A stretch of 31,694 nt of DNA from a virus (IMGVR_UViG_3300045988_104496:1-31694), one strand, 5' to 3'. Counted from the first letter of the stretch, positions 6,562 through 31,694 are shown. Notes: generated by a model not told the origin, from the letters alone. Numbers and translations: made by a program.

Positions 6562-6564
6562 AAA

Positions 6565-11750: not shown

Positions 11751-11761
11751 AACGGGAAGGA

Positions 11762-11785
11762 TGCCGCCGGGTCATACCGGCGGCA
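11762..11785 (-). promoter_or_regulatory. 9-bp dyad (tgccgccgg gtcata ccggcggca) in the S-V intergenic region; possible late promoter or attenuator element
   Basis: Perfect inverted repeat read from the sequence at the position of the P2 PV late promoter. No flanking T-run, so not an obvious terminator. Confidence 0.3.
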
Positions 11786-11816
11786 ATGTGACGATGAGGT
11801 GTCGGGAATGGCACAA

Positions 11817-12729: not shown

Positions 12730-12982
12730 CGTTTTCGTCCTGACAGTGTTTAATCATTTTTACCTGGCTGGCACAGCGTGCCAGCGCGTTCTCAAGCTGC
12801 CGGATATCGGCACTTAAATCGCCGTTCGTCTCCGGGTCACTGCCCGGCATCGGGCAAAGACTCACTTTCGGGCAGGCGTTGTGGACAATCACTGGCGTCG
12901 GTGCAGGCGGGGCGCTGGTGCAACCGGCGCACAGCATCAGGCAGGTCAGCGCCATACCAGCGGCGAAAATCCTCGTTTTCAT
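12692..12982 (-). CDS. lysC: Lysis lipoprotein LysC (Rz1-like), embedded in a different frame within lysB
   Basis: Internal start MKTRIFAAGMALTCLMLCAGC gives a signal peptide with lipobox LCAG|C and about 96 aa (P2 LysC size); proline-rich after the Cys. Nested in lysB as in Rz/Rz1 pairs. Confidence 0.6.
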   Translation of the reverse strand: MKTRIFAAGMALTCLMLCAGCTSAPPAPTPVIVHNACPKVSLCPMPGSDPETNGDLSADIRQLENALARCASQVKMIKHCQDENDAQTRQPAQGAD

Positions 12983-13262
12983 TAAGTAACCTCGTGATGG
13001 TTTTCTCGCGCAGTGCTTCACGCTTCGCGGCGTTCTCCAGTTCCTGACGCAGTGCCACCTGCGCCAGCTCGTTTTTGTCTGCCCTGGTGAGTGCAACATG
13101 AAGCTGATTTTTCAGCATGGTGATGGTCGTCTGCTGCCCGCTGGCGACGCTGTTCGCCCTGTCCAGTGAGGTGCGCAGGCTGGCGTTTTCATGCTTCGCC
13201 AGAAACAGCCCCGCCACCGCCAGCGATAACAACACGACCAGCACAATCATCAGCTTTGACAT
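12837..13262 (-). CDS. lysB: Lysis protein LysB (Rz-like spanin component)
   Basis: 141-aa ORF with N-terminal transmembrane segment (LMIVLVVLLSLAVAGLFLA) and coiled-coil remainder; P2 LysB size and position. Confidence 0.7.
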   Translation of the reverse strand: MSKLMIVLVVLLSLAVAGLFLAKHENASLRTSLDRANSVASGQQTTITMLKNQLHVALTRADKNELAQVALRQELENAAKREALREKTITRLLNENEDFRRWYGADLPDAVRRLHQRPACTDASDCPQRLPESESLPDAGQ

Positions 13263-13675
13263 AATTCCCGCCCCTCAAGACGCTGACGACAGGCTTTACG
13301 TATCAGCCGGAAAAACACCGACGCCACGAGGTAAATCAGCGCAGTAAAAATCCACCCGGCAGCGACCAGCGAGATAAACGTCGCCACCATCACCACCAGA
13401 GCCGCCGCCCGTCTGCGCCACGGCACCGGCTGCAAAAACAGCGACGCGACAATCTTCACGGCCAGCGATTCCGGCGACAGCTCCCGCCCGTAGCGCTCCA
13501 GTACATACTCTGTGGCATACACGCCGACACCACCGGCAACCACACAGATAACCGTCGCCAGAATCGCCCCGGCGGCGACAAAACTGACGGCCACGCTCTG
13601 CGGGTAAATCAGGGACAGTGCCAGCATCAGCGCCAGCGACACGTTCAGCATCAGTGAAAGGGATAATTTCTTCAT
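13250..13675 (-). CDS. lysA: Lysis regulatory membrane protein LysA
   Basis: 141-aa ORF with multiple hydrophobic helices; P2 LysA size and position. Confidence 0.7.
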   Translation of the reverse strand: MKKLSLSLMLNVSLALMLALSLIYPQSVAVSFVAAGAILATVICVVAGGVGVYATEYVLERYGRELSPESLAVKIVASLFLQPVPWRRRAAALVVMVATFISLVAAGWIFTALIYLVASVFFRLIRKACRQRLEGRELCQS

Positions 13676-13689
13676 GGTGTTTACTCCGT

Positions 13690-14187
13690 TTAAGCCGGTA
13701 CGCCGCCAGCGGTACGCCAGACGGTGACCAGTTTTTCCAGTGAATGCTCACGCTGACCGTAACCGGCTCCCGGCAGGGACGCCCAGATATTGCGACAGCG
13801 TGAAATAGCGCGCTCAATGCGTCCCGCCCGGATGTCATCCAGTGCACCGCGTTCGCGGATCAACTGAATGGCGAGCCTGTCCTGTGACAACGGACTGAAA
13901 TCCGGCAGGGCAAGCTGTTTGCGGTAGTGCGGCCAGAACAGGTAAAGCTGCTGATAGCGACCGGATGCCGTGGACTTTTCACCGCGACGGTTAAACACCT
14001 TCGCCGGTCGGCCATGCGCGAACGGGTGGTCACTGTAGTCGGTGAAAATTTCCGGCTTCCCGTCCAGTCCGGTGACTATCACGTCATAGCCCCGGTTTTT
14101 CGTCAGCGGATGGTTTGCCGTCCCTTCGGACACGGCCAGCATGTCGAGAAAGGCGGCGATATTCTGATGCGTGTTAATAACCGGCAT
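13690..14187 (-). CDS. K: Endolysin (P2 gpK-like lysozyme)
   Basis: 165-aa ORF, P2 K size, directly downstream of the holin. Confidence 0.9.
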   Translation of the reverse strand: MPVINTHQNIAAFLDMLAVSEGTANHPLTKNRGYDVIVTGLDGKPEIFTDYSDHPFAHGRPAKVFNRRGEKSTASGRYQQLYLFWPHYRKQLALPDFSPLSQDRLAIQLIRERGALDDIRAGRIERAISRCRNIWASLPGAGYGQREHSLEKLVTVWRTAGGVPA

Positions 14188-14468
14188 TACGGTTTCCCCC
14201 TGCCCTTAAAGCGGCGCTGAATGGCAATCTCAATCACCTGATAACCGGCGATACCCAGCATGGAGCCGATGCCGCACACCGCAGGCAGTGACAGGTCAGG
14301 AAACTGCACCAGAACAACACCGGCAACCATCGAGACAAAACCACCGAGCAACATGCGCCCGATAAACAGACGCGGGGTGATGGGTTCACCACCGGCAAGC
14401 ACCTTGCCGACAACAATCAGCACCCCAATCATGAAAAGCGACAGGACGCTTTTTTCTTCTGCTGTCAT
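14187..14468 (-). CDS. Y: Holin (P2 gpY-like)
   Basis: 93-aa ORF with two or three hydrophobic helices and a charged C-terminus (RRFKGRGKP); P2 Y size. Confidence 0.85.
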   Translation of the reverse strand: MTAEEKSVLSLFMIGVLIVVGKVLAGGEPITPRLFIGRMLLGGFVSMVAGVVLVQFPDLSLPAVCGIGSMLGIAGYQVIEIAIQRRFKGRGKP

Positions 14469-14471
14469 GCG

Positions 14472-14675
14472 TTACTCCCACAGATTGACAGTTTCAGCCA
14501 CGGGCGCGGTCTGAACGTCGGGCAGTTCGACGGCGGTGCCGTGTGGCAGCACCGCACCCAGTTCAGCCAGTCCCGGATTTGCGGCGAGCACGGTCTCAAC
14601 CACGCCCTCAGTGCGCCCGTAATACCGGACACAAATGGCGTCGAGCGTGTCGCCCTGTAGCGCAAAGGTCTTCAT
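14472..14675 (-). CDS. X: Tail protein gpX
   Basis: Six-frame ORF is 90 aa; the internal start MKTFALQGDTLDAI... gives 67 aa (P2 X size), and its ATG overlaps the L stop (ATGA). Confidence 0.75.
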   Translation of the reverse strand: MKTFALQGDTLDAICVRYYGRTEGVVETVLAANPGLAELGAVLPHGTAVELPDVQTAPVAETVNLWE

Positions 14676-15184
14676 CAGATTTGACTCACGATGCAGCGCG
14701 GCTTGCCCTGGATGCGCGCCACTGCCCAGCGCATATCCCGCCACAGCTCATCAATGGTGCTGTCAATGCTGTCGGCCTTCTTGTCGCCTTTCGCACTGGC
14801 ATCCACACCGCGATAACGTTCATAAAGCGACGCGGTCGCCATCGCACACACGGCGCGCTCGTAGTAAAAAACTTTGATGCTTTCACCGTCGATGTCGTCC
14901 GCCGGGACGTCCGCCAGACGCGTAAAACCGGCGGCAATTTTCTGTTCGCGGTACTCGTACAGCTCCGCATTCGTCTCCGCCATGCCTGACTTGATGGCCT
15001 CACGCAGACGGGCGGGGGCGACGGTCTGCTCAAGGCGCATACGTTCCCGGACGCGCTTCGGGTCGATATCGGGAAAAAAGAACGTGTTTTTAATCACCGG
15101 CTCGTCGCCTGCCGGTTGCGGGATGACCACCGTACCCTCACCGGACACGGGAGCCTCCTTTCGCGGAATAATCAGCGTCATCAT
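14675..15184 (-). CDS. L: Head completion/stabilisation protein gpL
   Basis: Internal start MMTLIIPRKEAP... gives 169 aa, P2 L size; the six-frame ORF extends to 15244. Confidence 0.8.
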   Translation of the reverse strand: MMTLIIPRKEAPVSGEGTVVIPQPAGDEPVIKNTFFFPDIDPKRVRERMRLEQTVAPARLREAIKSGMAETNAELYEYREQKIAAGFTRLADVPADDIDGESIKVFYYERAVCAMATASLYERYRGVDASAKGDKKADSIDSTIDELWRDMRWAVARIQGKPRCIVSQI

Positions 15185-15283
15185 GACTACCTCTGAAAAG
15201 TCGGGCGGTGGACGCCGGTGCAGTGTCAGGTGATTCACCCTCACTGACCGGCGTGCCGCCCTGGCGCGGGGCGCATTCGGTTG

Positions 15284-16027
15284 TTAACTGGCTTTCTTTT
15301 TCGGGCGTCCACGTTTTGCCGGTGTCACGCTCCGGATCTTACGCGGGGCGCGGGTGGCCGCTTTGGGCTGCGGCTCCGGCTTCGGTTTCAGCTCCCGCTC
15401 CAGTCGTTCAATCTCTTTTTTGACGCCTGCCTGACAGTCGAGCTGTGTCGCACGTTGCAGGTGAGCCAGCGCACCGGCGGCATCACCACCGTCACGCAGA
15501 AACAGACCGGTGATTTTGTGCAGCTTTGCGCGCACTTCATCAGGCATGTCAGCCGTGGCGGTCAGTTCAAGGGTCTCCGTCAGCAGGCGGGTATCCACAG
15601 ACTCACCGGCAGCGTGAGCGCGCATGGCCGCAAGCGCTACCTCCTCGGTGAACATGTACGGCGGGGTACGGCGGTGTTTACCCGGCATGGTCAGACCGTA
15701 CTTCAGGGCATAACGGGCAATCTCCAGCGCACCGGCAATATCGCCGGTATCCAGACGCCACAGCATGACCGTCATCAGAATGTCATCCTGTGCACCTTTG
15801 CCCTGCTCCAGCACGCCGTTCACCCACGGCAACCAGAACGGCAGCAGTTCGCGTTTTTTCGCGGCCTTCAGCTCTTTTGAATAAATCGCTTTCAGTGTGC
15901 GCTGGTCTGCGGCGAGCTTAACCAGCATCTGCTCATAGACAGTTGCATGTCGCAGCGGGGCGGCTTCCCGCTGCGCGGTCATCGCTGCCGAGACCCGCAT
16001 CATGTGGCGCTGTGCGGGACTCGTCAT
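15284..16027 (-). CDS. M: Terminase small (endonuclease) subunit gpM
   Basis: 247-aa ORF, P2 M size and position, with a basic C-terminal tail. Confidence 0.9.
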   Translation of the reverse strand: MTSPAQRHMMRVSAAMTAQREAAPLRHATVYEQMLVKLAADQRTLKAIYSKELKAAKKRELLPFWLPWVNGVLEQGKGAQDDILMTVMLWRLDTGDIAGALEIARYALKYGLTMPGKHRRTPPYMFTEEVALAAMRAHAAGESVDTRLLTETLELTATADMPDEVRAKLHKITGLFLRDGGDAAGALAHLQRATQLDCQAGVKKEIERLERELKPKPEPQPKAATRAPRKIRSVTPAKRGRPKKKAS

Positions 16028-16030
16028 CGG

Positions 16031-17104
16031 TTACGCTCCCGGCTCTGCGGTCGCTTTAGCCAGTGTGGAGAAATCACCGACCTTAATTTTTTCCACCAGA
16101 CAACCGGCGGCGTAGTCTTCCACCACGTAATCAATGTTCATTGACTCGTAGTTCTCCACGCGGTCGAGTTTCGGGTTTTCCTCAATCACGCGGCGATGGC
16201 TGTCATCCATGTAGTAGATGGACAGGTTTTCCAGCTTTGTGATGAGCATCGCATCCGCCGGGAAGTACGGGACGCGTACCGCCGGCAGGTTACCGATGCG
16301 TTTCTGGCTGATGATGACGTCAGCGGCCAGCATTTCGCTGTTGTCCTGCTCCTTGTTGACGATGGGAAAATACTTGTCCGCCAGTAGCTGACGTCCCACA
16401 ATCACCACAAGGTCAGGGTCTTCCTGATACCACGGCTCAATCAGGTTGTTGGTCGCATCCATCACCAGTGCGTCAAGGCTGGCATAATCACCGCCCTTAC
16501 CCACGCGGATGACCTCAGAGGTGGTGCGACCTTCCTCGTCAGCGACCTTGCTCATCACGCGCGCCGGGGCTTCATTGCGGTATTTCTGCAGCCAGCCGAC
16601 CGCCACATCCTGCAGCATCGGATTGCTGCTGCGGTCAGAGGTTCCGGCACGCCTCACGCCGTTAAAACCGGCCATGATTAAATCAAGGGACTGGCGTTTG
16701 ATAATGGCGTTACGGACACGGAGCTGGAAATCCTGATAACGCGCCCACAGGTCCAGCGTTTTGTAGCGGATATAAAAATCGAAGTTAATCTGGTCGCATT
16801 CGTACTTGTTTGACGCCAGCTTCGAGAAGTCCTTCGGCTGACGCTCGGTGCCACCGGCGGTGTCGGTGGTGCTGGCGATGGAGCCGGTGACACCGATGCC
16901 AATTTTTTCCCCTTTCATTTCGCTGACCGGCACAATGTTGATGCGGGTCAGAAAGTCAGAGGACTCCTGCATGGTGTTCATCAGGGTCTGGGTGACCGAC
17001 GGTTCAACGGTGAATTTTTTCGACACATCACCGGCGTCGATGCCGTTCAGTTCGGCAACACGGGACAGGTAGGCATTAAATTTAAAGCGGGTTTCCTGGC
17101 GCAT
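16031..17104 (-). CDS. N: Major capsid protein gpN
   Basis: 357-aa ORF, P2 N size and position. Confidence 0.9.
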   Translation of the reverse strand: MRQETRFKFNAYLSRVAELNGIDAGDVSKKFTVEPSVTQTLMNTMQESSDFLTRINIVPVSEMKGEKIGIGVTGSIASTTDTAGGTERQPKDFSKLASNKYECDQINFDFYIRYKTLDLWARYQDFQLRVRNAIIKRQSLDLIMAGFNGVRRAGTSDRSSNPMLQDVAVGWLQKYRNEAPARVMSKVADEEGRTTSEVIRVGKGGDYASLDALVMDATNNLIEPWYQEDPDLVVIVGRQLLADKYFPIVNKEQDNSEMLAADVIISQKRIGNLPAVRVPYFPADAMLITKLENLSIYYMDDSHRRVIEENPKLDRVENYESMNIDYVVEDYAAGCLVEKIKVGDFSTLAKATAEPGA

Positions 17105-17162
17105 AGTTTTTCCTGAAATTAAGGGTTAATCGTGAAGGTTTTCCCGGACTGACTGACGCCGG

Positions 17163-18017
17163 TCAGCAGTTCGTCATCAGGGCGTCACCGCCACCACCGG
17201 TGGCCTTGCTGCGGCGCTGCTGGGTCAGACTTTCGGTGTGGTCGAGACTGTTTTTCAGGCGGGTGAATGCCTGGCTGGTTTCATCCGCCCTGTCAGTCAC
17301 ATCCTGCTTAAGTGCGGAAAAAGCGGTTTCCATCTCAGCGAGGCGCTGCTCAGTGGCGCTCAGTTTTTCCTGCACATGTTCAGCAACAGCGGTCACCGCT
17401 TCATGCACGTCATTCAGACGGGCGTCATCGCTGGCCTGTTTGCGGCCAAAAATGGACTTCACCTTTTCGGTCAGGGCGGTGAACACGGTTTCAGGCAGGT
17501 CTTCAAATTCCAGCTCAACGGGCGTTGCCACTGAAATCAGGTTTTCAGGGCTTAATTTGAAGCGGTTCAGGGGGTTGTGTTTTGCCGTGCGGCAGAATTC
17601 CAGGTATTCCGTGCCGAGGCTTGCCGGGTCATCGGTGACGGCCAGACCCACCAGATAACATTTGCCGGTATTGGCAAAGTTCGGCTGAATTTCCATTGAG
17701 GTATAGACCTTCTGCGCGGCCTTGTTCATCGCGATAAGGTCATCGGTCGGGGTGATTTTCGCAAACAGCGCCCATTTGCCTTTCAGCGCCGAATCATCGT
17801 CAATCTTTTCGGCCTTCAGTTCGACCACATCGCCATAACGCTTAAAAATACCGTCAGGCAGGACGCCGCGCAGATGTTCCAGGTTAATGCGGCAACCATA
17901 GACTCGCGGGTCAAAGGTTTCGGCCATTTCCTGAATATCCTGCGCACTGATGACACGCCCGTCACAGGTGTCACCCTCAACGCCGATACGAAAGAATTTT
18001 GAGACTTTTTTTGCCAT
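17163..18017 (-). CDS. O: Capsid scaffold protein gpO
   Basis: Six-frame ORF is 306 aa; internal start MAKKVSKFFRIGVEGD... gives 284 aa, P2 O size. Confidence 0.85.
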   Translation of the reverse strand: MAKKVSKFFRIGVEGDTCDGRVISAQDIQEMAETFDPRVYGCRINLEHLRGVLPDGIFKRYGDVVELKAEKIDDDSALKGKWALFAKITPTDDLIAMNKAAQKVYTSMEIQPNFANTGKCYLVGLAVTDDPASLGTEYLEFCRTAKHNPLNRFKLSPENLISVATPVELEFEDLPETVFTALTEKVKSIFGRKQASDDARLNDVHEAVTAVAEHVQEKLSATEQRLAEMETAFSALKQDVTDRADETSQAFTRLKNSLDHTESLTQQRRSKATGGGGDALMTNC

Positions 18018-18190
18018 TGTCAGGAGTCCTGAATAGTGATTAGAGGAGTCACATGTCGGCATCAGTTTCCCGACGATACGCATCCTCCGCCATCAGTCCC
18101 GGATGGCTTATCACTGACACAACAGCACCTTAGCGAATCGCGGGGCGCGACTCAGTAGCCTTGCCGTGTATTCATCACGGCGAGGTATTC
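18018..18190. promoter_or_regulatory. Divergent late promoter region (PO leftward, PP rightward)
   Basis: Intergenic region between divergently transcribed O and P; contains a partial dyad tGTCGGcatcagtttcCCGACg of the TGT-N-ACA kind bound by Ogr-type activators. Position-based inference. Confidence 0.4.
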
Positions 18191-19963
18191 ATGACCATCA
18201 CCACAGACACCACTCTTTTACACGACCCGCGTCGTCAGGCGGCGCTGCTGTACTGGCAGGGGTTTTCCGTGCCGCAGATTGCCGCCATGTTGCAGATGAA
18301 ACGCCCGACGGTGCAGAGCTGGAAACAGCGCGACGGCTGGGACAGCGTTGCCCCCATCAGCCGTGTCGAAATGAGCCTGGAAGCGCGGCTGACCCAGCTC
18401 ATCATCAAACCGCAGAAAACCGGCGGTGACTTCAAGGAAATTGACCTGCTGGGACGCCAGATTGAACGACTGGCACGGGTAAACCGCTACAGCCAGACCG
18501 GCAACGAGGCAGACCTTAATCCGAACGTCGCTAACCGCAACAAAGGCGGGCGTCGCAAACCGAAAAAGAATTTTTTCAGTGACGAAGCCATCGAAAAGCT
18601 GGAGCAGATTTTCTTTGAGCAGTCTTTCGACTATCAGTTGCACTGGTATCGCGCCGGGCTTGAGCACCGCATCCGCGATATCCTGAAATCCCGCCAGATT
18701 GGCGCGACGTTTTATTTTTCCCGCGAGGCACTGCTGCGCGCCCTGAAAACCGGTCATAACCAGATTTTTCTGTCGGCCAGTAAAACGCAGGCGTATGTGT
18801 TCCGCGAATACATCATCGCCTTTGCCCGTCTGGTGGACGTTGACCTTACCGGTGACCCGATTGTCCTGGGCAATAACGGCGCAAAACTGATTTTTCTCGG
18901 CACCAACTCCAACACCGCGCAGAGCCATAACGGCGACCTGTACGTCGATGAGATTTTCTGGATCCCGAATTTTCAGGTACTGCGTAAGGTGGCATCAGGT
19001 ATGGCCTCACAGAGTCACCTGCGCTCGACCTATTTCTCCACCCCGTCCACGCTGGCGCACGACGCCTACCCGTTCTGGTCAGGTGAACTGTTCAACCGGG
19101 GACGTGCCAGCGCCGCCGAACGTGTGGAAATCGACGTCAGTCATAACGCCCTTGCCAGCGGGCTTCTCTGTGCGGACGGCCAGTGGCGGCAGATTGTCAC
19201 CATTGAGGACGCCCTGAAAGGCGGCTGCACACTGTTCGACATTGAGCAGCTCAAACGTGAAAACAGCGCCGACGATTTTAAAAACCTGTTCATGTGTGAA
19301 TTTGTTGACGACAAGGCGTCGGTGTTCCCGTTCGAGGAGCTGCAACGCTGCATGGTCGACACGCTGGAAGAATGGGAAGACTATGCACCCTTTGCCGCCA
19401 ATCCGTTCGGCTCCCGCCCGGTATGGATTGGTTACGACCCGTCACACCGTGGCGACAGTGCCGGATGCGTGGTGCTGGCACCGCCGGTGGTGGCCGGTGG
19501 CAAATTCAGAATACTTGAGCGTCACCAGTGGAAAGGCATGGACTTTGCCACTCAGGCTGAATCCATCCGCAAACTCACCGAAAAATACAACGTCGAATAC
19601 ATCGGTATTGATGCCACCGGCCTCGGTGTCGGCGTGTTCCAGCTCGTGCGCTCGTTCTATCCCGCCGCGCGCGATATCCGCTACACACCGGAAATGAAAA
19701 CCGCAATGGTGCTCAAGGCAAAAGACGTTATCCGCCGTGGCTGTCTGGAATATGACGTCAGCGCCACCGACATCACCAGCTCGTTTATGGCTATCCGCAA
19801 GACCATGACCAGCAGCGGACGCAGCGCCACTTATGAGGCCAGCCGCAGCGAGGAAGCCAGCCACGCCGACCTCGCCTGGGCGACCATGCACGCCCTGTTA
19901 AATGAGCCACTCACCGCCGGTATCAGCACCCCGCTGACATCCACCATTCTGGAGTTTTACTGA
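18191..19963 (+). CDS. P: Terminase large (ATPase) subunit gpP
   Basis: Starts MTITTDTTLLHDPRRQAALLYWQGFSVPQIAAMLQ..., which I recognise as the P2 gpP N-terminus; GAGG 5 nt upstream of this ATG. The six-frame ORF begins 10 codons earlier. Confidence 0.9.
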   Translation: MTITTDTTLLHDPRRQAALLYWQGFSVPQIAAMLQMKRPTVQSWKQRDGWDSVAPISRVEMSLEARLTQLIIKPQKTGGDFKEIDLLGRQIERLARVNRYSQTGNEADLNPNVANRNKGGRRKPKKNFFSDEAIEKLEQIFFEQSFDYQLHWYRAGLEHRIRDILKSRQIGATFYFSREALLRALKTGHNQIFLSASKTQAYVFREYIIAFARLVDVDLTGDPIVLGNNGAKLIFLGTNSNTAQSHNGDLYVDEIFWIPNFQVLRKVASGMASQSHLRSTYFSTPSTLAHDAYPFWSGELFNRGRASAAERVEIDVSHNALASGLLCADGQWRQIVTIEDALKGGCTLFDIEQLKRENSADDFKNLFMCEFVDDKASVFPFEELQRCMVDTLEEWEDYAPFAANPFGSRPVWIGYDPSHRGDSAGCVVLAPPVVAGGKFRILERHQWKGMDFATQAESIRKLTEKYNVEYIGIDATGLGVGVFQLVRSFYPAARDIRYTPEMKTAMVLKAKDVIRRGCLEYDVSATDITSSFMAIRKTMTSSGRSATYEASRSEEASHADLAWATMHALLNEPLTAGISTPLTSTILEFY

Positions 19964-20997
19964 TGAGCAAGAAAAAAGGGAAAACACCGCAACCTGCGGC
20001 AAAAAAAATGACCGCCAGCGCCCCGAAAATGGAGGCATTCACCTTTGGTGAGCCGGTGCCGGTGCTCGACCGCCGTGACATTCTGGATTACGTCGAATGT
20101 ATCAGTAACGGCAGATGGTATGAGCCGCCGGTCAGCTTTACCGGTCTGGCAAAAAGCCTGCGTGCTGCCGTGCATCACAGCTCACCGATTTACGTCAAAC
20201 GTAATATTCTGGCTTCAACGTTTATCCCGCACCCGTGGCTTTCCCAGCAGGATTTCAGCCGCTTTGTGCTGGATTTTCTGGTGTTCGGTAATGCGTTTCT
20301 GGAAAAGCGTTACAGCACCACCGGTAAGGTCATCAGACTGGAAACCTCACCGGCAAAATATACCCGCCGTGGCGTGGAGGAGGATGTTTACTGGTGGGTG
20401 CCGTCCTTCAACGAGCCGACAGCCTTCGCGCCCGGCTCCGTGTTTCACCTGCTGGAGCCGGATATTAATCAGGAGCTGTACGGCCTGCCGGAATATCTCA
20501 GCGCCCTTAACTCTGCCTGGCTGAATGAGTCGGCCACGCTGTTCCGCCGCAAGTATTACGAAAATGGCGCACATGCCGGATACATCATGTACGTCACCGA
20601 TGCCGTGCAGGATCGCAACGATATCGAAATGCTTCGCGAAAACATGGTGAAGTCGAAAGGCCGCAACAACTTTAAAAACCTGTTTCTCTATGCCCCGCAG
20701 GGGAAAGCCGACGGCATTAAAATTATCCCGCTCAGTGAAGTGGCGACGAAGGACGATTTTTTTAATATCAAAAAAGCCAGCGCCGCTGACCTGCTGGACG
20801 CACACCGCATCCCCTTTCAGTTGATGGGTGGCAAGCCGGAGAACGTCGGGTCACTGGGTGATATTGAGAAAGTGGCAAAGGTCTTTGTCCGCAATGAGCT
20901 AATCCCGTTACAGGACAGGATTCGGGAAATAAACGGCTGGCTCGGCCAGGAGGTCATCCGCTTTAAAAACTACTCACTGGACACTGACAACGGCTGA
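19963..20997 (+). CDS. Q: Portal protein gpQ
   Basis: 344-aa ORF, P2 Q size; its ATG overlaps the P stop (ATGA). Confidence 0.9.
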   Translation: MSKKKGKTPQPAAKKMTASAPKMEAFTFGEPVPVLDRRDILDYVECISNGRWYEPPVSFTGLAKSLRAAVHHSSPIYVKRNILASTFIPHPWLSQQDFSRFVLDFLVFGNAFLEKRYSTTGKVIRLETSPAKYTRRGVEEDVYWWVPSFNEPTAFAPGSVFHLLEPDINQELYGLPEYLSALNSAWLNESATLFRRKYYENGAHAGYIMYVTDAVQDRNDIEMLRENMVKSKGRNNFKNLFLYAPQGKADGIKIIPLSEVATKDDFFNIKKASAADLLDAHRIPFQLMGGKPENVGSLGDIEKVAKVFVRNELIPLQDRIREINGWLGQEVIRFKNYSLDTDNG

Positions 20998-21002
20998 ACA
21001 TC

Positions 21003-21024
21003 GCCGCCTGCGGGCGGCTTTTTT
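21003..21024 (+). terminator. Rho-independent terminator after Q
   Basis: gccgcc-tgcg-ggcggc followed by TTTTTT, 6 nt after the Q stop. Confidence 0.7.
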
Positions 21025-21166
21025 ACACCCCGTCATCACGCCCTCACACGCTCACCACCGCACAAAACACCCCGCAGACACACCAACGCCCTAGCAGGCC
21101 AAGTAAACGCCTTCACGACGCGCTCAGACGCTGAAAAAATAAAATCCGCACCACCGCCAGCGCGCA

Positions 21167-21185
21167 GTGCTTTCCCCGCCTCGCC
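21167..21185 (-). other. cos: cos site (19-nt P2 cohesive end)
   Basis: Plus strand gtgctttccccgcctcgcc is the exact reverse complement of the P2 cohesive end GGCGAGGCGGGGAAAGCAC as I remember it; position next to Q is as in P2. Confidence 0.7.
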
Positions 21186-21509
21186 CGCCCGCTTCATAGG
21201 GCGCTTTTAATGCAATTGCATTAAAACACAGTAACCGCATCAACACTGGTAACAAACATGGAAAAGCATGGCAACTAACACACGCAAAAAAATGCACTTA
21301 ATGAATGCAGTAATAAAAATCTCAGGAAATTGACAATTCATTTATTTTTTCAAAATCCCAGTTAGTTAAAGGCTCGCTATCATTACAAGCAATCAAAAAA
21401 TGTCTTAGCTCTAACAGCAAGTAGTAATAGTAGTTGCCACCAACAAGCGTTAACATTACCATAACAAACAACAAGCATTCCTACACCTACATCAGATGAA
21501 CAGGTAATT

Positions 21510-22874
21510 ATGATTAATTTAATTATGGGTGGTTTTCCCGACCACTACGACCACTGGAAACCATTCAGCCAAAATAATGGAGAATTCTCATTTCTTTTAT
21601 CACGAATGTTTGAAAACACCTCCGATGGTATTCGCAAAAAACTATCCCCATTAAGCAGCAATGTACTATCTTATCTTGAAAAACTCCCAACAATATTCAT
21701 GAGTGAAGCTTATCAAATAGAGGGAGCAAAACCTTATTATGTCGACATACGAATTGGAAGAATTTCAAATATTCACATTAAGGGAAAAGAAATCAACTTC
21801 CAATTTGCAATCACCCATACACACAATGAAATCAAAATATCAGACGCCAAAAGTGTTGAAAGCAGTTTAGAACTCGGAACTTATGGCCTTAAAAGAACAC
21901 ACTGGGCCATAAAAGACAAAAATATAGATGATATCCTTAAGACATTTGGTATTAACCAAAATGCACAAGTGGATAGCAGTCCAGCGCCTCTCCCAGACGA
22001 AGATAGCACATTATTAACCGTAAATAGTTTACAAGAATTTATTGAAAAAGTTCTCCATATAACAGCAGATATGGATGAGGAGATTTTTTACAGGGGTCAT
22101 TCAGATTCATCTTATGAACTTGCACCATCTCTTTTCAGAAAATATGAAAATGGGAACTATAAATTTCTACATAATGAAATCAACCTTGTTAAAGAAGCAT
22201 TGAGCGCAAGACCCTCAGAATTCATTGATGATACATCAATGCTTGATAAACTTGTAAGAATGCAACATTATGGCATACCTACTCGCTTACTTGACATCAC
22301 ATCAAATCCATTAATTGCACTTTATTTTGCATGCAGTAGTATAAATTCCGACAAAAACGATATCGATGGTCAAGTAATAATATTTAAAACACACAGAGAG
22401 AACATTAAATTTTTCGATTCCGACACTGTCAGTTGCATATCTAATTTATGCATGCTATCAAAAGACATGAAAGACAAGCTTTCTTTCGAAGAAAGAAATA
22501 ATGATTTTAACAACTCTCATGCTTGCCTTAAACTCTTAGAATCCATAAAGCATGAAAAACCATATTTTCAAAGCATAATAAATCCAGATGATTTGGAAAA
22601 GATAATTTTTGTAAAAAGCAGGATAAATAATGAAAGAATATCATCTCAATCCGGTGCCTTTTTATTATTCGGTAATAACGCCGTTTTTCCTGAGATATCC
22701 AACGATCAGGCAGATAATTCACCATACAACTTTAAGACAGAAAAAATAAACATCAGAGACAAAAAGAAAATTTTAAAAGAACTTGCCGTGCTCAATATTA
22801 CTGATGCCACTGTATATTTAGGATTGGAAAGAACAATGAAACTAATCACAGAAAAATACACATTAAAAAATTAG
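21510..22874 (+). CDS. FRG-domain protein, function unknown; candidate anti-phage cargo gene
   Basis: 454-aa ORF in a strongly AT-rich island. Contains the two FRG-domain signature blocks, EEIFYRGHSDSSYELAPSLFR and LVRMQHYGIPTRLLDITSNPLIALYFAC, recognised from memory of the Pfam FRG family. AGGT 6 nt before the ATG. Sits where P2 has old/tin. Confidence 0.65.
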   Translation: MINLIMGGFPDHYDHWKPFSQNNGEFSFLLSRMFENTSDGIRKKLSPLSSNVLSYLEKLPTIFMSEAYQIEGAKPYYVDIRIGRISNIHIKGKEINFQFAITHTHNEIKISDAKSVESSLELGTYGLKRTHWAIKDKNIDDILKTFGINQNAQVDSSPAPLPDEDSTLLTVNSLQEFIEKVLHITADMDEEIFYRGHSDSSYELAPSLFRKYENGNYKFLHNEINLVKEALSARPSEFIDDTSMLDKLVRMQHYGIPTRLLDITSNPLIALYFACSSINSDKNDIDGQVIIFKTHRENIKFFDSDTVSCISNLCMLSKDMKDKLSFEERNNDFNNSHACLKLLESIKHEKPYFQSIINPDDLEKIIFVKSRINNERISSQSGAFLLFGNNAVFPEISNDQADNSPYNFKTEKINIRDKKKILKELAVLNITDATVYLGLERTMKLITEKYTLKN

Positions 22875-22982
22875 CATTCCATAACCAAAATATCTCCATA
22901 CTTCCCCGCAGAAATTAAGGCTACGGGGAAATAACATCAGTAAGTATCTTAAGAACAATATAATCACTTACAGGAACCTGTA

Positions 22983-23960
22983 TTAAAGTGCAGTACTTGC
23001 TTTTAATGTAAGCACCTTTGATCTATAACGTTGTTCAATTACCCCCATAGAATGCAATCGTCCAAATAACTTTTTGGCAGTATGAGTTTCTCTTGCACAC
23101 GCTGCATCCTTTATCATTTTCCAATATTCAATTTCTTGAGACATTAAAAGATGCTGCTTATTCCTGACTTTTAAAGAACCGCCCAAAACAATAACACCTG
23201 TTACCAACTTAGGCTTTTCTCTACTATAAATTTTTGTTTTATCCGCATGCATCACATGACCATGCTTATTTATTATTTTGCGAATCACTGAACAAAATAG
23301 TCTATTAACGTTTTGTCCTGAAAAAGTTAGATCATCAACATAAACAGACATATTTACGTGTAGTTTATTACAAAGTTGGTGTATTTCTCCGAACATTCTT
23401 GAATTTGCAAAATATGCAAGAGGCATACTAATCCTGCTACCTGTAGGCAAACGCCCATAGCAAGTACATATATACGATAATACATCCGCAACATCAGATG
23501 ACATCTTCATAACAGAAAAAAAGAATGAAAATATCATTTCTCTAGTAGTTGATGGAAAAAAAGCCCTGATGTCGGTTGTCATCAACCTTTCATTATTAAG
23601 GTGGATTTTAGCATTAGTAACATTAGAACATCCCTTCTTTCCAGAATGTAGATAATCTGGCAAGGTAATTCGCGATAGCAGACTTGCAATACGAGTATGC
23701 ACCACATCTAATTTTTCTAATGGTTTTTGTATCTTACGTGGCTTTCCGTTTTTAGATAACTGTTCAAAAATAGAATAATTGCCTTCATCTTTTTTTAAGG
23801 TTGATAAATCCCCTACATCAACCCCCAATAAAGAAGCCAATTTCCTTTTACTTCTCATTTTATAAAACGGCGAATCAATTATATCGTAAGATTTATTTTT
23901 AGTGGAAATTTTGAGTTTTATTCGTCTTTTCATTTTTCTTATTCGCCCACTCAATAACAT
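22983..23960 (-). CDS. Retron-type reverse transcriptase (start codon uncertain)
   Basis: Contains the retron RT hallmarks in order: NAxxH (VTNAKIHL), motif A (TDIRAFFPS), motif B-like LPTGSRISMPLAYFANS, catalytic YVDD (SVYVDDLTF) and the retron VTG motif (KLVTGVIV). Overall length and N-terminal pattern resemble Ec86-class RTs as I remember them. Alternative starts at 23933 (MKRRIK) or 23858 (MRSKRK); none has a strong Shine-Dalgarno. Confidence 0.8.
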   Translation of the reverse strand: MLLSGRIRKMKRRIKLKISTKNKSYDIIDSPFYKMRSKRKLASLLGVDVGDLSTLKKDEGNYSIFEQLSKNGKPRKIQKPLEKLDVVHTRIASLLSRITLPDYLHSGKKGCSNVTNAKIHLNNERLMTTDIRAFFPSTTREMIFSFFFSVMKMSSDVADVLSYICTCYGRLPTGSRISMPLAYFANSRMFGEIHQLCNKLHVNMSVYVDDLTFSGQNVNRLFCSVIRKIINKHGHVMHADKTKIYSREKPKLVTGVIVLGGSLKVRNKQHLLMSQEIEYWKMIKDAACARETHTAKKLFGRLHSMGVIEQRYRSKVLTLKASTAL

Positions 23961-24231
23961 CTAATACTTTACCAGCTAAATTTAAACGGAAACGCTTAGA
24001 TAAACGCCCCTGCGTACCTAACGATTCTGAAAAAAATACTAAAGAAGATACCGGCATATCGAAATGGGAGGCGTAACGCTGTAAAACATCAATTGTAGGC
24101 GACCAAACCCCACTTTCGAGTTCTACTATTTTTTCTTTTGGAATACCTAAAGATGTTGATAAATCAACCAATGACTCTTTATGGTATTGCCTTATTAAAC
24201 GAAGGGCTCTGTGTAACATAGGCAACTCCAT
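23899..24231 (-). CDS. XRE-family helix-turn-helix protein, directly upstream of the RT gene
   Basis: LHRALRLIRQYHKESLVDLSTSLGIPKEKIVELESGVWSPTIDVLQRYASHFDMPVSSL fits the Cro/C1-type HTH pattern. The likely true start is the second Met at 24219, which has GGAG 6 nt upstream. The 3' end overlaps the longest RT reading frame. Confidence 0.65.
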   Translation of the reverse strand: MELPMLHRALRLIRQYHKESLVDLSTSLGIPKEKIVELESGVWSPTIDVLQRYASHFDMPVSSLVFFSESLGTQGRLSKRFRLNLAGKVLDVIEWANKKNEKTNKTQNFH

Positions 24232-24255
24232 GCTATTGAAACTAGGGAGGACGCA

Positions 24256-24411
24256 TTACTCATCACCCCCTTCAAAGTAGTCCAGTGCTCGAGTGGCTAA
24301 ATCAAACAGTCTAATACCCCATTTGATTAATTTCCAAACATAACCAGCCCACTTTTTCAGGTTTGACTTGTTCTGCGCCTGCTGTTCGTTGGTTAATTTA
24401 TCATTCTTCAT
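24256..24411 (-). CDS. Small ORF (51 aa) with a consensus Shine-Dalgarno; hypothetical small protein
   Basis: AAGGAG, a 6-nt spacer, then ATG at 24411; encodes MKNDKLTNEQQAQNKSNLKKWAGYVWKLIKWGIRLFDLATRALDYFEGGDE with a Trp-rich amphipathic segment. The 3' arm of the upstream hairpin (CATAAG) abuts and partly overlaps the SD. Confidence 0.4.
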   Translation of the reverse strand: MKNDKLTNEQQAQNKSNLKKWAGYVWKLIKWGIRLFDLATRALDYFEGGDE

Positions 24412-24660
24412 GATTTGCTCCTTATGCCCATAGTGTGCAAACGATATGTCTGCTCCAACACTATGGTTCGCCCTCATAAGGATGAGATTGAACAGCACTA
24501 GCCCCCTGCTCCACGAACCCTTGGTCGCCCAAAGGGTTCGAATACCCATACGCCATACCGCCTGATCCTGTGACTCTTGTCGCTGGCAGGGGCGTTGCGC
24601 GGGGTAAATGTTAGAAAGCGTTAACTTTCCACGGGTAAAGTTACCCAATTGATGGCGATG
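24412..24660 (-). ncRNA. GC-rich structured leader; candidate retron msr-msd ncRNA (boundaries not determined)
   Basis: A GC-rich patch inside an AT-rich island. On the minus strand there is a long imperfect hairpin of about 15 bp at 24421..24480, a 9-bp stem cgaaccctt/aagggttcg at 24514..24540, and further short hairpins at about 24612..24650. The only ORF covering it needs a TTG start and has odd amino-acid composition. No convincing a1/a2 inverted repeat pair was found by eye. Confidence 0.35.
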
Positions 24661-24827
24661 TATCTCACTAACTAACCAATGTTTGCATCATAACAAGTAA
24701 ACCGTTGTATTTGATCTCCCTATATATAATATTTTTTTATATTAAATAAACAATTAATAAATATTAAACATAAAACATATTAAAGCGACCTCCTCTATGC
24801 CTTCATTGCATTGAATTTTAACGTTTT
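24661..24827 (-). promoter_or_regulatory. AT-rich putative promoter region for the ncRNA/small ORF/HTH/RT operon
   Basis: Minus strand reads TTGTTT, a 17-nt spacer, then ATTATA/TATATA around 24745..24715, followed by gggagatcaaat... Positioned between the A stop and the structured leader. By-eye promoter call only. Confidence 0.3.
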
Positions 24828-27158
24828 TTATATAAAAAATGACACTTCATCTTGAAATCCGAACCACTCATCAGCGACCGGATACGTGAATTTTTTCCCG
24901 TCATAATTTACGGTCGCGCCACGCGCCAGCGCCTCAAGCTCCCATCGCTGCGGCCTGATACCGTTCTGAGCAAGGTCAACGCGGATACGGGTAATTTGCA
25001 TTCGTTCCGACCGGGCCAGTCTGGCCGATGGTGCAATTTCATGTGGTTTTAACGGGCTTCCGTTTCTTTGCTGACGATTTGGCGTTCTCCGACCGTGTTT
25101 TAATGCACCTCTGAGCGCCCTCACGACCTCCGGGTCACTCCATTCGATAACACCGTCATCAACCAGATTAAGCACTGCTGCGGCGTGCTCAGAAGGTGTG
25201 GGAACCGGTAACGAAGTATCACCACCGGTGAGTTTTCCACAGTTATTGACAGGACTCCGAGGCGCGGCGATGCCGCTTTTTAAAGTCAAAGGCTCAACGA
25301 CCGGAACTTTCGGCACAATGCGCCAGTCCGTCGTTCTGGTGATATGAATATGACGCGCGCCGAGATGCGGCGCGTAAATGCCGACCACTCTCTCGACTTC
25401 TTCCTCGTACTCGTTAACGTCATCCGACGGGATACGGGCGACTCTGACAGTCTGACAATCGCGCGGGACATTTGCCCCACCCTGCGCGCTGATATACAAC
25501 GCAAAATCACCACTGTCTGCGGCGGCGCGTGCAGCCTCGACGCGCTCGTCAAACTCATCAGCAATGCTGACGCCGCGCGGCAATTTGCGTAGTTCACGGT
25601 AAGCCCCCATTGTCGGCAGGCCAACCGTTTTAAATTGCGGGATGCGCCACGTTGACGCCCATGCGCTAACAGCCGCTGCAGTGTCTTTCAGCGGCCTGCC
25701 GGTGTCGTTATCGAGCTGACCATCCAGTGCATAGCCGTCGATGTTTTTTGAAATGTATTTCGCGATATATCCCGCAGCACCGCCCCGGTTAAGATGTTTT
25801 GCCTGAAAACGGTTTCGCGCGGCTCCTCTTTCGTCGCCATCCTCTTTGAGCGCATAGCGACGCATGATTTCGATAATCTGGTTACGCTGGCGCGGATTAC
25901 AAAAAAGCATCATATGCCAGTGCGGCGTTCCGTCGTGGTGTGGCTCGACGACACGCAAACCGTAGACCTGTAAATCATTATCCTTGAATGCCGTGCGCAT
26001 CAGGCTCCAGATACGGCAGAGATAACGCTGCGCATCCTTTGGATTAAATGCCTCATCGTTCCAGCCGTGATTTAGCTGGACGGTTTTACTTTCGCCTTTT
26101 CTGACCTGACGTGTCGGGTGATACTTTGACGGCGCGGTCAGCGTGATAAACATCCCCACATCACCCTCTGCTGCGGCGTAACGCTCAATACCGGCAATGG
26201 TGTTCATCAGCTCCATCCGGCGAATTTCAGGATTAGAAATACTGCCCATCACCTTACTGATAAGGTCGATGCGCTCGCCGGTTTCCCTGTTTTCGAGATC
26301 ACACGATTTAAGAAATTCCAGATTTGCCTGGCGGCGTGCACGCACATCACGAATGGCATGTTTACTGGCATAAGGAGAACGGTCTTTATTGACCTCCCCG
26401 ACAGCAATCAGTAACGCCTCATGCCAGCGCATACGCTGGCCTTTAAGCTGATGGGTCCACCACTCATCGTTAAACAGACGGACAATGGCAGAATATGCCT
26501 GCCTCGTGGTCATCTGCCCTTTACGGTATTTTTTCCAGTAGAGAGGGGAAATATTGAAAGCACGTGCAGCACCAGCAACATGACCATAGAGGTGAGCCTG
26601 CGCCTCATCCGTAAACAGCGATTCTTTTTCGCCATGCGCATCCACCCAGGCATCGCAGAGTTCCTCATACATCATGAAAAGCTGCGATGAGATACGGGCG
26701 GCAAACTTTTTCAGCTCCTTGTCATTCATCCCCGGCAGACGCGCATAATGGTCACGCTCTGCCAGAAACAGCAACGACGCGTCGGTGTTCATTTCATGGC
26801 GCTGATTCACACGCTCAATGCGCGGCCATAAACGACGCTGAAAAGTGGATGTGAGAAAATAAAACCCGTGCACCGGGCTTTTATTGCGCCGGATGTAGTC
26901 ATAGCGTGAAGTAAACAGCGAGCGCAAAAAGTAAGGCAGGCGGTTAATCGTGGATAAAACACCTTGCACCTGACGCATCTCGTCACGTGTAAGGGGTCTT
27001 TCGCGCCCGACAGCCTCGCGTGGCGCGTTCCATGCATAAGCACCGGTAAACGCCTTACCGGTGCCTGCGGCAAATGCTGACGGAGGGACAAAACGCCCGG
27101 AGGCTTTAACGGCCATATGAGCCAAAAGCCTCTGAACAACGCTTGCTGAGTTGCTCAA
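24828..27158 (-). CDS. A: Rolling-circle replication initiator (P2 gpA-like)
   Basis: 776-aa ORF with the HUH metal-binding motif (VEPHHDGTPHWHMMLF) and paired active-site tyrosines (YIAKYISK). The true start may be the Met at 27116, giving about 762 aa close to the P2 A size. Confidence 0.9.
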   Translation of the reverse strand: MSNSASVVQRLLAHMAVKASGRFVPPSAFAAGTGKAFTGAYAWNAPREAVGRERPLTRDEMRQVQGVLSTINRLPYFLRSLFTSRYDYIRRNKSPVHGFYFLTSTFQRRLWPRIERVNQRHEMNTDASLLFLAERDHYARLPGMNDKELKKFAARISSQLFMMYEELCDAWVDAHGEKESLFTDEAQAHLYGHVAGAARAFNISPLYWKKYRKGQMTTRQAYSAIVRLFNDEWWTHQLKGQRMRWHEALLIAVGEVNKDRSPYASKHAIRDVRARRQANLEFLKSCDLENRETGERIDLISKVMGSISNPEIRRMELMNTIAGIERYAAAEGDVGMFITLTAPSKYHPTRQVRKGESKTVQLNHGWNDEAFNPKDAQRYLCRIWSLMRTAFKDNDLQVYGLRVVEPHHDGTPHWHMMLFCNPRQRNQIIEIMRRYALKEDGDERGAARNRFQAKHLNRGGAAGYIAKYISKNIDGYALDGQLDNDTGRPLKDTAAAVSAWASTWRIPQFKTVGLPTMGAYRELRKLPRGVSIADEFDERVEAARAAADSGDFALYISAQGGANVPRDCQTVRVARIPSDDVNEYEEEVERVVGIYAPHLGARHIHITRTTDWRIVPKVPVVEPLTLKSGIAAPRSPVNNCGKLTGGDTSLPVPTPSEHAAAVLNLVDDGVIEWSDPEVVRALRGALKHGRRTPNRQQRNGSPLKPHEIAPSARLARSERMQITRIRVDLAQNGIRPQRWELEALARGATVNYDGKKFTYPVADEWFGFQDEVSFFI

Positions 27159-30794: not shown

Positions 30795-30951
30795 ATGCAT
30801 AAGCCGTATCCTGGTCACCGTCTTCCATTGACCACATCGATAGAATCCCCCTTCATAACACGATGCCTTTCACGTAACGGCATCGTGCTCGTACAGATTC
30901 CGGCTACGCACAACCAGAACGCGCATGTTTGACGCTTACCAAAAAATATTC

Positions 30952-31269
30952 TCACTCTCCACATTTGAATGTCAGACGAGCGACGCCATGTAATCCTGCA
31001 CCTTCTGTCTTCAGGTCAACTATCTGCATTTTTTTGCCCTGAGTAACACAGAAATGAGCTGCATCATTTTTTACTATATTTTCTGCACCAGAAATTCTGC
31101 CCCTGGCTAAAGAAGCTTCGGCTTCGGTGTAGTATTGGTTATCGAGTTTACGCTGAATATTACTTTTATATGCAAGACCAAATTTACCGATACTTGTCTC
31201 ATCATTATGTACAGCACACCCAGACATAAGAAAAACACTAATTAATGATATAGCAGCTATCTTTTTCAT
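30952..31269 (-). CDS. Small lipoprotein of unknown function outside the att core
   Basis: Start MKKIAAISLISVFLMSGC gives a signal peptide with lipobox LMSG|C and about 105 aa; the six-frame ORF extends to 31329. Lower GC than the phage core. Confidence 0.55.
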   Translation of the reverse strand: MKKIAAISLISVFLMSGCAVHNDETSIGKFGLAYKSNIQRKLDNQYYTEAEASLARGRISGAENIVKNDAAHFCVTQGKKMQIVDLKTEGAGLHGVARLTFKCGE

Positions 31270-31584
31270 CTTACCTTCCCCCATTAAATACCAACGACAC
31301 GCTCTGGTGTTAAAATATAATAATGGCATGATTATTATAATTGAATAGGATTATAATAAATGTTCTGTACAACATTTCCTACATAAGTAGGAATTACATA
31401 CACGGAGGCCCTTCCGGGTAACCCCATGGGGGGGTTAATATATTTTTAATAGTATATTGAAGATGCCACTGTTTAGTTGAATATTAGGTATATGCTCTTT
31501 TTTGAAATTTACCTATGGCTACCGTTAACATTCACTGTCCCCATTGCAAGCTCCTGGTGGTAACCACTGAATCCTCTATACTTG

Positions 31585-31694
31585 GGTAATGACTCCAACT
31601 TATTGATAGTGTTTTATGTTCAGATAATGCCCGATGACTTTGTCATGCAGCTCCACCGATTTTGAGAACGACAGTGACTTCCGTCCCAGCCTTG
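31585..31694 (-). mobile_element. IS1 terminal inverted repeat and adjacent end (partial; continues past the window edge)
   Basis: ggtaatgactccaacttattgatagtgttttatgttcagataatgcccgatgactttgtcatgcagctccaccgattttgagaacgacag matches the IS1 right end as I remember it, with a few point differences typical of IS1 isoforms. Confidence 0.85.

Follow-up and report, generated by a model that had tools for sequence, protein, structure and literature searches.

The stretch of DNA analysed here, IMGVR_UViG_3300045988_104496:1-31694, is a viral sequence of 31,694 nt (the window, to which all coordinates refer) that carries a P2-like prophage with an exchanged block of genes between its cohesive-end site, cos, and its replication gene A. 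The gene order is P, Q, cos, cargo, A, and the cargo thus occupies the position of orf91, tin and old in P2. Next to cos lies a gene for a protein with an FRG domain (PF08867); facing it is an operon that specifies a structured non-coding RNA, an open reading frame (ORF) for a small protein (SP), a helix-turn-helix (HTH) protein matching HTH_VI and a reverse transcriptase (RT) matching RT_VI (Table 1). The original prediction had named this same inventory, and family matches and RNA comparison bear it out; they also sharpen the identity of the operon, which on the sequence evidence is a complete Type VI retron of the Vpa2-like lineage, with the small ORF as its predicted toxin ORF.

Table 1. 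Features of the cos-to-A interval and its edges
Feature	Position	Strand	Evidence
P2 cos site, 19-nt cohesive end	21167-21185		Identical to P2 cosL/cosR GGCGAGGCGGGGAAAGCAC, reverse complement
Replaced interval, 3,637 bp	21215-24851		Without P2 alignment; GC contrast; junctions recur with other cargo
FRG cassette, cos-proximal	21221-22982	+	Relatives L085, L086 and L087 with the same retron break at 22983/22979 and resume at about 21220
Doubtful 50-aa ORF upstream of FRG gene	21322-21474	-	RefSeq HYP13_gp45, hypothetical (150 nt, 49 aa)
FRG-domain protein, 454 aa (PDC-S15; phrog_4962)	21510-22874	+	Pfam, PADLOC and PHROG matches
Type VI retron cassette	22983-24851	-	Structured RNA, SP ORF, HTH, RT
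Retron RT, 316 aa, Type VI	22983-23933	-	PADLOC RT_VI 1.1e-105
HTH protein, 106 aa	23899-24219	-	PADLOC HTH_VI 7e-30; overlaps RT start by 35 nt
IR2 (CCUCCCUAGUUUCA), 3' arm of long-range helix, between SP stop and HTH start	24237-24250	-	Kept in 15/15 aligned relatives including Vpa2
SP ORF, 51 aa	24256-24411	-	phrog_15287 3e-39, full length
SP codons 9-11 and first bases of codon 12 (GAACAGCA)	24380-24387	-	Paired with non-coding RNA 24490-24497 (UGCUGUUC)
Non-coding part of hybrid RNA (msr-msd region)	24412-24697	-	Fold, covariation, collinearity with Vpa2; 24697 is the homology-defined limit
IR1, 5' arm of long-range helix enclosing SP ORF	24502-24513	-	Helix 7, pairs with IR2
Conserved hairpin UUCGAACCCUUUGG-GCGA-CCAAGGGUUCG	24514-24542	-	Helix 6, compensatory change in 8/10 pairs
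Predicted msd (reverse-transcription template): long hairpin, base conserved, apex variable	24544-24605	-	Helices 3-5
Two small 5' hairpins	24648-24632, 24630-24613	-	Consensus structure
AT-rich spacer between gene A and retron RNA, GC 0.235	24669-24851	-	Common only to P2 prophages with this retron
Replication gene A (flank)	24828-27116	-	Pfam Phage_GPA 7e-123

BLASTN against the P2 reference (NC_001895) gives 91-98% identity nearly throughout the window and places three segments around the cargo: window 11815-21185 corresponds to P2 9369-1, 21167-21214 to P2 33593-33546, and 24852-30795 to P2 30299-24355. Over the 4.3 kb compared (21212-25500) the window shows 100% identity with Peduovirus P2_2H1 (LR595870 / NC_049386). 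The P2 alignment ends at 30795, the P2 attP core (P2 24355), and because homology stops there we read the window as a prophage in its integrated state, followed by about 0.9 kb of host DNA; its first letter falls within tail gene U, so the other prophage end lies outside.

These alignments delimit the exchange at both ends. On the cos side, P2 homology extends to 21214 (P2 33546), 29 nt beyond cos, and on the A side it is back at 24852 (P2 30299), 20 nt ahead of the stop codon of P2 gene A. The interval between stands in for P2 30300-33545, that is, orf91, tin and old, and its flanks are 97-98% identical to P2 A and to P2 cos-Q-P. An island of about 3.6 kb had been predicted at 21200-24827, and both of its ends were thus placed correctly to about 25 nt. 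The predicted limits, cos and A, also hold as the frame of the slot, but the replaced stretch takes the last codons of gene A as well: the A product agrees with P2 A at 97% identity for residues 1-754 of 761, then diverges in a 7-residue C-terminal tail, and since the junction lies inside the gene, those last 7 residues and the stop codon are supplied by the cargo. No homologue of P2 Old, Tin or Orf91 was found by TBLASTN in the whole window (best E 0.28, 0.15 and 0.19, respectively), in agreement with the claim that the P2 genes of this slot are gone.

Base composition follows the same boundaries. The GC content of the island is 0.349 against 0.527 for the remaining window, and by gene it is 0.33 for the FRG coding sequence, 0.33 for the RT and 0.36 for the HTH gene, compared with 0.53 for both flanking genes, Q and A. 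The description of the cargo as AT-rich relative to Q and A therefore fits the island overall and its genes, but not the 257-nt structured non-coding RNA, which at 0.51 is the exception.

The same slot is used by other phages. Five P2-like phages (STYP1, 569R9, P2-magyaro, pro147 and pro483) share it with nearly the same junctions: their homology to the window is lost at 21221-21250 near cos, and near gene A the break lies at 24852-24864, or at 25027 in the case of pro483. Their cargo is Fic/VbhT, DUF4209, cytolethal distending toxin, an Ec48-type retron or DUF4238. Rousset et al. (2022, PMC9122126) counted 1,650 arrangements among 18,150 loci for the gpA-gpQ region adjoining cos, which they describe as a hotspot, retrons included, with old and tin as its P2 reference content. 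The view that cos-to-A is a variable position where anti-phage systems accumulate is thus well founded, with the qualification that P2 hotspot cargo is not always defensive and also includes cytolethal distending toxin and partition systems (cf. PMC9122126 and the phages compared here). The present locus matches that hotspot in its position between gpA and cos/gpQ and in its junctions, which are as in P2 and the five compared phages; it differs in nothing essential, and neither FRG nor this retron was among the systems assayed in that study.

How widespread the island is can be judged from a survey of 5,426 complete E. coli genomes. The query matches in 2,152 of them, at 2,935 places and mostly through its short P2 edges, and the island itself is present in 60 genomes (60 of the 2,935 places), always at 99% identity or more. 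With only 60 of the 2,152 matching genomes carrying it, the island is therefore not core sequence, and we rejected the notion of a conserved core of this phage lineage on this count and on the other cargo of the five P2-like phages. Rousset et al. (2022, PMC9122126) list an arrangement 'hypothetical + FRG + RVT_1' in their Table S5A, and system 56 of Table S5B, 'FRG', with 75 occurrences, includes the very FRG protein of this window. Locus type, cargo combination and both gene families have been reported before, and phage and genome entries in public databases contain the sequence; the slot holds a load catalogued earlier for a variable hotspot that was itself known, and not a new kind of element. 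The observation that started this work is correct and its interpretation is supported, for an arrangement already known at a known hotspot, to which our analysis adds the cassette junction, the assignment to the Vpa2-like lineage, a map of the RNA and a structural reading of the FRG protein.

As a side observation, pro147 carries an Ec48-type retron between portal gene Q and cos (L096 826-3037), on the opposite side from the usual slot, together with a second RT gene in the cos-to-A slot.

The original prediction spoke of one island, and the replaced interval is indeed single, but it consists of two cassettes, horizontally acquired, independent and separately exchangeable, that meet at the RT stop codon. 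The same retron occupies the same slot in E. coli O157:H7 FRIK944, PapRG-06-5, EH01-18-02 and Klebsiella Peduoviridae phages. In these relatives homology spans gene A (or begins at 24697) to exactly the RT stop (22983/22979) and is back only at about 21220, by cos; in place of the FRG gene they have unrelated genes, either for a 145-aa protein with small ORFs or for a 266-aa protein. In E. coli C5 a retron copy that is 72% identical lies in a non-phage chromosomal island. Across the E. coli genomes the retron RNA family occurs in 100/5,426, in four variants of 100%, about 96%, 87% and 72% identity, and 60 of the 100 also carry this FRG gene. At 80 other Type VI RT loci from a range of bacteria, collected by an alignment-based search of genome contigs after a query with a single RT returned none, there is no FRG homologue within 3.5 kb. 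The exact RT-stop junction, the other partners and the lack of FRG neighbours at these 80 loci identify FRG and retron as separate, convergently transcribed modules.

One might instead suppose that the two form a single functional system, with FRG as an extra effector or sensor of the retron. Among the complete E. coli genomes searched, the FRG allele (at least 80% of its length) is found in 60 and the intact island in 60, so that FRG appears always beside this retron, and E. coli C5 has a distant FRG-domain gene about 3 kb from its retron copy. The 60 co-occurrences are, however, at least 99% identical and so reflect one recent lineage. The convergent orientation across a boundary placed exactly at the RT stop, the three unrelated neighbours of the retron elsewhere and the FRG-free Type VI loci all speak for two modules, as does the FRG family itself, whose more than 3,500 members (Enterobacterales, Rhizobiales, Aeromonas) are mostly full length and which Rousset et al. 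(2022, PMC9122126) list as a system of its own. We therefore consider a joint system highly improbable, and FRG was rejected as a retron component on the RT-stop junction and on the 0/80 Type VI loci with FRG nearby.

The partners found with the retron elsewhere deserve a brief description of their own. In FRIK944 (L085 6873-7310) and in Klebsiella phage ST147-VIM1phi7.1 (L004 3412-3843) the retron is accompanied by a conserved protein of 143-145 aa that ends in a hydrophobic Gly/Ala-rich tail, and in EH01-18-02 by the 266-aa protein, which has a C-terminal transmembrane segment; both may be further uncharacterised hotspot cargo. In E. coli C5 (L088 6787-8184, 9644-10436) the retron is followed by a convergent gene for a 465-aa hypothetical protein, a recombinase gene and the distant FRG-domain gene (30% identity over 100 aa), and this locus near yeiP looks like a small defence island.

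Turning to the retron proteins, the RT belongs clearly to Type VI, as the next best retron type in PADLOC scores 5e-45. Its homologues have 316 aa, and we placed its start 9 codons inside the mechanical ORF for that reason. The YVDD catalytic box, NAKIH (NAxxH) and VTG motifs are invariant in the RT alignment (A1), and the three are reportedly the retron signatures given by Mestre et al. in 2020. The HTH gene, of the Cro/C1 type as in other Type VI retrons, has an alternative in-frame start, an ATG upstream at 24231. The SP ORF is preceded by the ribosome-binding site TAAGGAG (24418-24424) and encodes a C-terminal hydrophobic helix; the same 156-nt gene is annotated by PGAP in E. coli genomes. 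Among the 60 Type VI loci where the HTH match is full length and in the right orientation, nearly all have at this position, about 200 nt upstream of the HTH gene, an ORF of 45-65 aa with a ribosome-binding site, whose product has a basic N-terminal half and a hydrophobic C-terminal helix. By analogy with characterised Type VI retrons, SP is predicted to be the toxic effector.

Two annotation matters touch on SP. An SP of a defined cluster is present in about 27% of HTH-encoding Type VI systems in the figure quoted from the original classification, and the near-universal SP-position ORFs of our 60 loci lie far above that quoted value. The RefSeq phage record gives a TTG-start 'hypothetical protein' of 130 aa at 24256-24648 and labels the RT just 'polymerase'; we rejected the 130-aa ORF as a gene, reading it as a mechanical read-through of the retron non-coding RNA whose real product is the 51-aa SP.

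For the RNA that precedes SP, a scan of 20900-25000 against Rfam returned no family at E <= 1, and its definition therefore comes from comparison with relatives. The 499 nt ahead of the HTH gene fold with a z-score of -5.4 relative to shuffles, and an alignment of 13 relatives yields a consensus structure of 72 pairs in 14 helices, in which 96.1% of cells are paired (40-50% when the partners are slid) and 36/72 pairs show compensatory change (4-14 after sliding); no shuffle out of 500 equals the observed value on any measure. The hairpin predicted as msd varies at its apex in both length and sequence between relatives and lies at the position of the stem-loop that gives the multicopy single-stranded DNA (msDNA) of Retron-Vpa2. 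A GGGCGA repeat at 24525-24530 spans the loop and closing base pair of the helix 6 hairpin, and a second copy lies at 24468-24473, followed by a stem that ends just ahead of the SP ribosome-binding site; both copies are invariant in the RNA alignment (A2).

Long-range pairing ties this region to the SP gene. The IR1-IR2 helix comprises 12 pairs, 94.8% paired, with compensatory change in 5, and helix 8, which joins SP codons to the non-coding RNA, has 8 pairs, 100% paired, with compensatory change in 2. A further helix between UGAGAU at the 5' end and a 3' UAGUUUCA, resembling a1/a2, is 95.8% paired but shows almost no covariation and competes with IR1-IR2, and we do not claim it. A start-codon hairpin, AUCAU-GAAGA-AUGAU, can be drawn for this RNA and for close relatives; because it changes register in more distant ones, it has no alignment score. 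Upstream, homology begins at 24697 in the Klebsiella phage copy and at 24667 in the chromosomal copy, and the retron promoter presumably lies in the AT-rich spacer that separates gene A from the RNA.

Among characterised systems, Retron-Vpa2 of Vibrio parahaemolyticus is the closest guide. There, a single 'hybrid RNA' comprises msr-msd together with the SP coding sequence, and SP is a toxin; the HTH protein represses reverse transcription, msDNA accumulates only upon triggering by phage recombination proteins and is required to derepress SP translation, and the msDNA 5' stem-loop is proposed to contact the riboregulator through conserved 7-nt direct repeats (Zhang et al. 2025, bioRxiv 10.1101/2025.10.22.683967). 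We recognised the Vpa2 locus among our relatives (L090) by its published residues, a 55-aa SP with K15, I39, F43 and F45 and an HTH protein with R7. It shares with the present retron the operon order of hybrid RNA with SP ORF, then HTH, then RT; the RTs are 54% and the HTH proteins 50% identical, with Arg7 kept. The RNA elements come in the same order, with IR1-IR2 around SP, and a plain alignment keeps 54/72 pairs. The SPs end alike, in a C-terminal hydrophobic helix finishing in F(E/D)GGD, but that of Vpa2 has 55 aa and ours 51, and their pairwise similarity is weak (E 0.012). Vpa2 has GGACGAA twice, where the window has GGGCGA twice in the same places, and the duplicated GGGCGA corresponds to the conserved 7-nt repeats of Zhang et al. 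The two differ in the msd apex and in their setting, Vpa2 being chromosomal beside rpoD whereas this retron is in a P2 prophage.

By this analogy, the retron here probably follows the Vpa2 scheme. A single transcript would combine the msr-msd template with the ORF for a 51-aa hydrophobic toxin, enclosed by long-range helices, and a complex of RT, HTH protein and RNA would hold off both reverse transcription and SP translation. An infecting phage with recombination or RecBCD-inhibiting functions, such as lambda Red/Gam, could then cause msDNA to accumulate, and the msDNA 5' stem-loop, carrying the complement of GGGCGA, would pair with the second repeat near the SP ribosome-binding site and open it. 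SP would be made, and growth of the infected cell would halt (abortive infection).

The main rival to the Vpa2 scheme is the one described for Retron-Sen3, of the cl2075 lineage, in which SP and single-stranded DNA are constitutive, the HTH protein acts as a protein antitoxin, control is post-translational, the trigger is lambda Red or loss of RecBCD, and recB or recC mutants do not allow the system to be established (Garcia-Rodriguez et al. 2026, bioRxiv 10.64898/2026.04.27.721009). On such a plan, loss of RecBCD would free the toxin and msDNA would have no part in translational control. Sen3 is likewise of Type VI and shares with our locus the SP-HTH-RT order, covariation within the SP coding region and an extended transcript in which SP is flanked by an IR1-IR2 helix, and an unpaired SP ribosome-binding site, as seen in the consensus structure here, would suit it. 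Its SP, however, is of another cluster, with 79 aa and an N-terminal extension, whereas the 51-aa SP of the window is near the 55 aa of Vpa2 (the 'Large' lineage), and the RNA here is collinear with that of Vpa2, including the paired 7-nt repeats proposed for msDNA-dependent derepression. Retron-Eco12, an E. coli Type VI retron related to Vpa2 that defends against lambda-vir, resembles Vpa2 in having no detectable msDNA at rest (10.1101/2025.10.22.683967). We hold a Sen3-like mode of action to be unlikely for this retron. Eco12 is of the same species and retron type and may be this retron or another of the four E. coli variants; RT-dependent msDNA, SP toxicity and phage defence within Type VI are known only for Vpa2, Eco12 and Sen3.

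The second cassette consists of the FRG gene, together with a doubtful 50-aa ORF upstream that has no Pfam or PHROG match. The FRG domain covers residues 191-281 (2.4e-21), 14 PDC-S15 profiles match the protein (best 7.3e-98, PADLOC), and phrog_4962 matches over its full length. Homologues number more than 3,500 in Enterobacterales, Rhizobiales, Aeromonas and others, and most of the best 120 are full length. In 30 homologues the FYRGH stretch (F193-Y194-R195-G196-H197), that is, the (F/Y)RG motif, is invariant, as are RMQHxGxPTRLLDxTxNP (250-267), DSDTVSC (303-309) and SQxGxFLxFG (379-388). An AlphaFold model built with the 30 homologues has a mean pLDDT of 77.6, with values of 80-92 for the N-terminal 150 residues. 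By structural inference this N-terminal region may be an EVE/YTH-like domain, for which we found no sequence-level support, and the model shows a C-terminal domain with a putative ADP-ribosyltransferase (ART)-like fold, in agreement with a published assignment that puts the Frg clade into the ART superfamily and regards it as a candidate antiviral effector or NADase (PMC9503650). The protein thus resembles the PDC-S15 / PF08867 / phrog_4962 family in its full-length match and in a single-gene architecture shared with thousands of homologues; PDC-S15 is a candidate family only, to which we add the model-based EVE/YTH-like reading of the N-terminal 150 residues.

Elsewhere the EVE/YTH fold reads modified bases, and the FRG domain would have an ART fold, so the protein could sense a feature of phage nucleic acid and respond by consuming NAD+ or by ADP-ribosylation. 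Given an N-terminal assignment made from structure and the lack of a reported FRG phenotype, this sensor-plus-ART layout is a working hypothesis. A more specific version holds that FRG is a single-chain sensor-effector, its EVE/YTH-like domain reading a phage modified base (for example the hydroxymethyl- or glucosyl-cytosine of T-even DNA) and its ART-fold domain depleting NAD+ or ADP-ribosylating a target. Paired with a retron that responds to lambda Red/Gam or to inhibited RecBCD, such an FRG protein would let the cargo rebuild, by unrelated means, the two specificities it replaced, those of Old against lambda (in RecBCD-compromised cells) and of Tin against T-even phages. We offer this proposal as speculation and think it distinctly unlikely in its full form.

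A different possibility is that the FRG gene has no defensive role and is, for example, a counter-defence factor, a lysogenic-conversion toxin or a selfish addiction gene. We found no experimental defence phenotype for any FRG protein in the literature searched, and the presence of cytolethal distending toxin and partition systems at the P2 hotspot shows that cargo of other kinds does settle there. PADLOC, in contrast, lists the family as a defence candidate, the Frg clade has been proposed as an effector of prokaryotic immunity systems (PMC9503650), and the combination of a predicted modified-base-reader fold with an ART fold would be a typical sensor-effector layout. On balance a non-defensive FRG gene seems to us rather unlikely, though it has to be reckoned with.

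Taken together, the locus is in all likelihood best explained as a known hotspot in which two independent, horizontally acquired anti-phage cassettes have replaced orf91, tin and old. What we observed directly is the replacement with its breakpoints, the assignment of the genes to families, the RNA fold with its covariation, and the modular make-up and distribution of the island. Some points nevertheless weigh against the anti-phage part of this explanation. The locus is known from sequence and models, from which defence activity, triggers, msDNA production, SP toxicity and every functional step of FRG are inferred, and no FRG defence phenotype was found in the literature searched. Type VI retrons are mechanistically diverse, as the constitutive Sen3 illustrates, so the Vpa2 scheme may not transfer. 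The SP ribosome-binding site, where that scheme places its control, is left unpaired in the consensus structure, and just the short start-codon hairpin with its shifting register can be seen nearby. A consensus scan gave no convincing retron promoter and no terminator between the cassettes.

A parallel between the lost and the gained genes is worth considering. What brought P2 Old to light was that it kills recB cells and excludes lambda; Type VI retrons, for their part, are set off by lambda Red/Gam and by loss of RecBCD. The two are related neither in sequence nor in fold, Old being an ABC-ATPase/TOPRIM nuclease and the retron a system of RT, RNA and small toxin. Since both are tied to RecBCD status and lambda Red/Gam, the slot may have kept its surveillance logic while the machinery changed, which suggests that selection at this position could preserve a function and not a gene.

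We envision several uses for this locus. It offers a clean, well-delimited case of cassette exchange at the P2 hotspot and a natural E. coli/P2 setting for a Type VI retron, a class whose mechanism was worked out only in 2025-26, and the RNA map (msd hairpin, repeat pair, IR1/IR2 and SP-codon pairing) can guide mutagenesis in the native host. The FRG gene, with its more than 3,500 homologues and a plausible, model-based reader-plus-ART layout, is a widespread candidate and the only part able to yield something new; if it proves to be a defence gene, it would represent a new single-gene system linked to NAD+ or ADP-ribose.

Elsewhere the prophage departs from P2 at a few other places. Where P2 has the fun(Z) locus (P2 15347-17432), the window has 856 nt of other sequence (5105-5960) with a single 197-aa ORF (5219-5812, minus strand), which has an N-terminal hydrophobic segment and no Pfam or PADLOC match; this is a second cargo slot with an unannotated gene. 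The non-essential P2 orf30 (P2 9370-10307) is absent, and 64 unaligned nt are left between S and V (11751-11814). In the tail-fibre region H/G (5961-8718) short pieces are 77-81% identical to P2 and 1.7 kb is unalignable, a divergence expected for host-range variation. Finally, the host flank at 30796-31694 contains a lipoprotein-like ORF of 125 aa (30952-31329, minus strand) with no family match.

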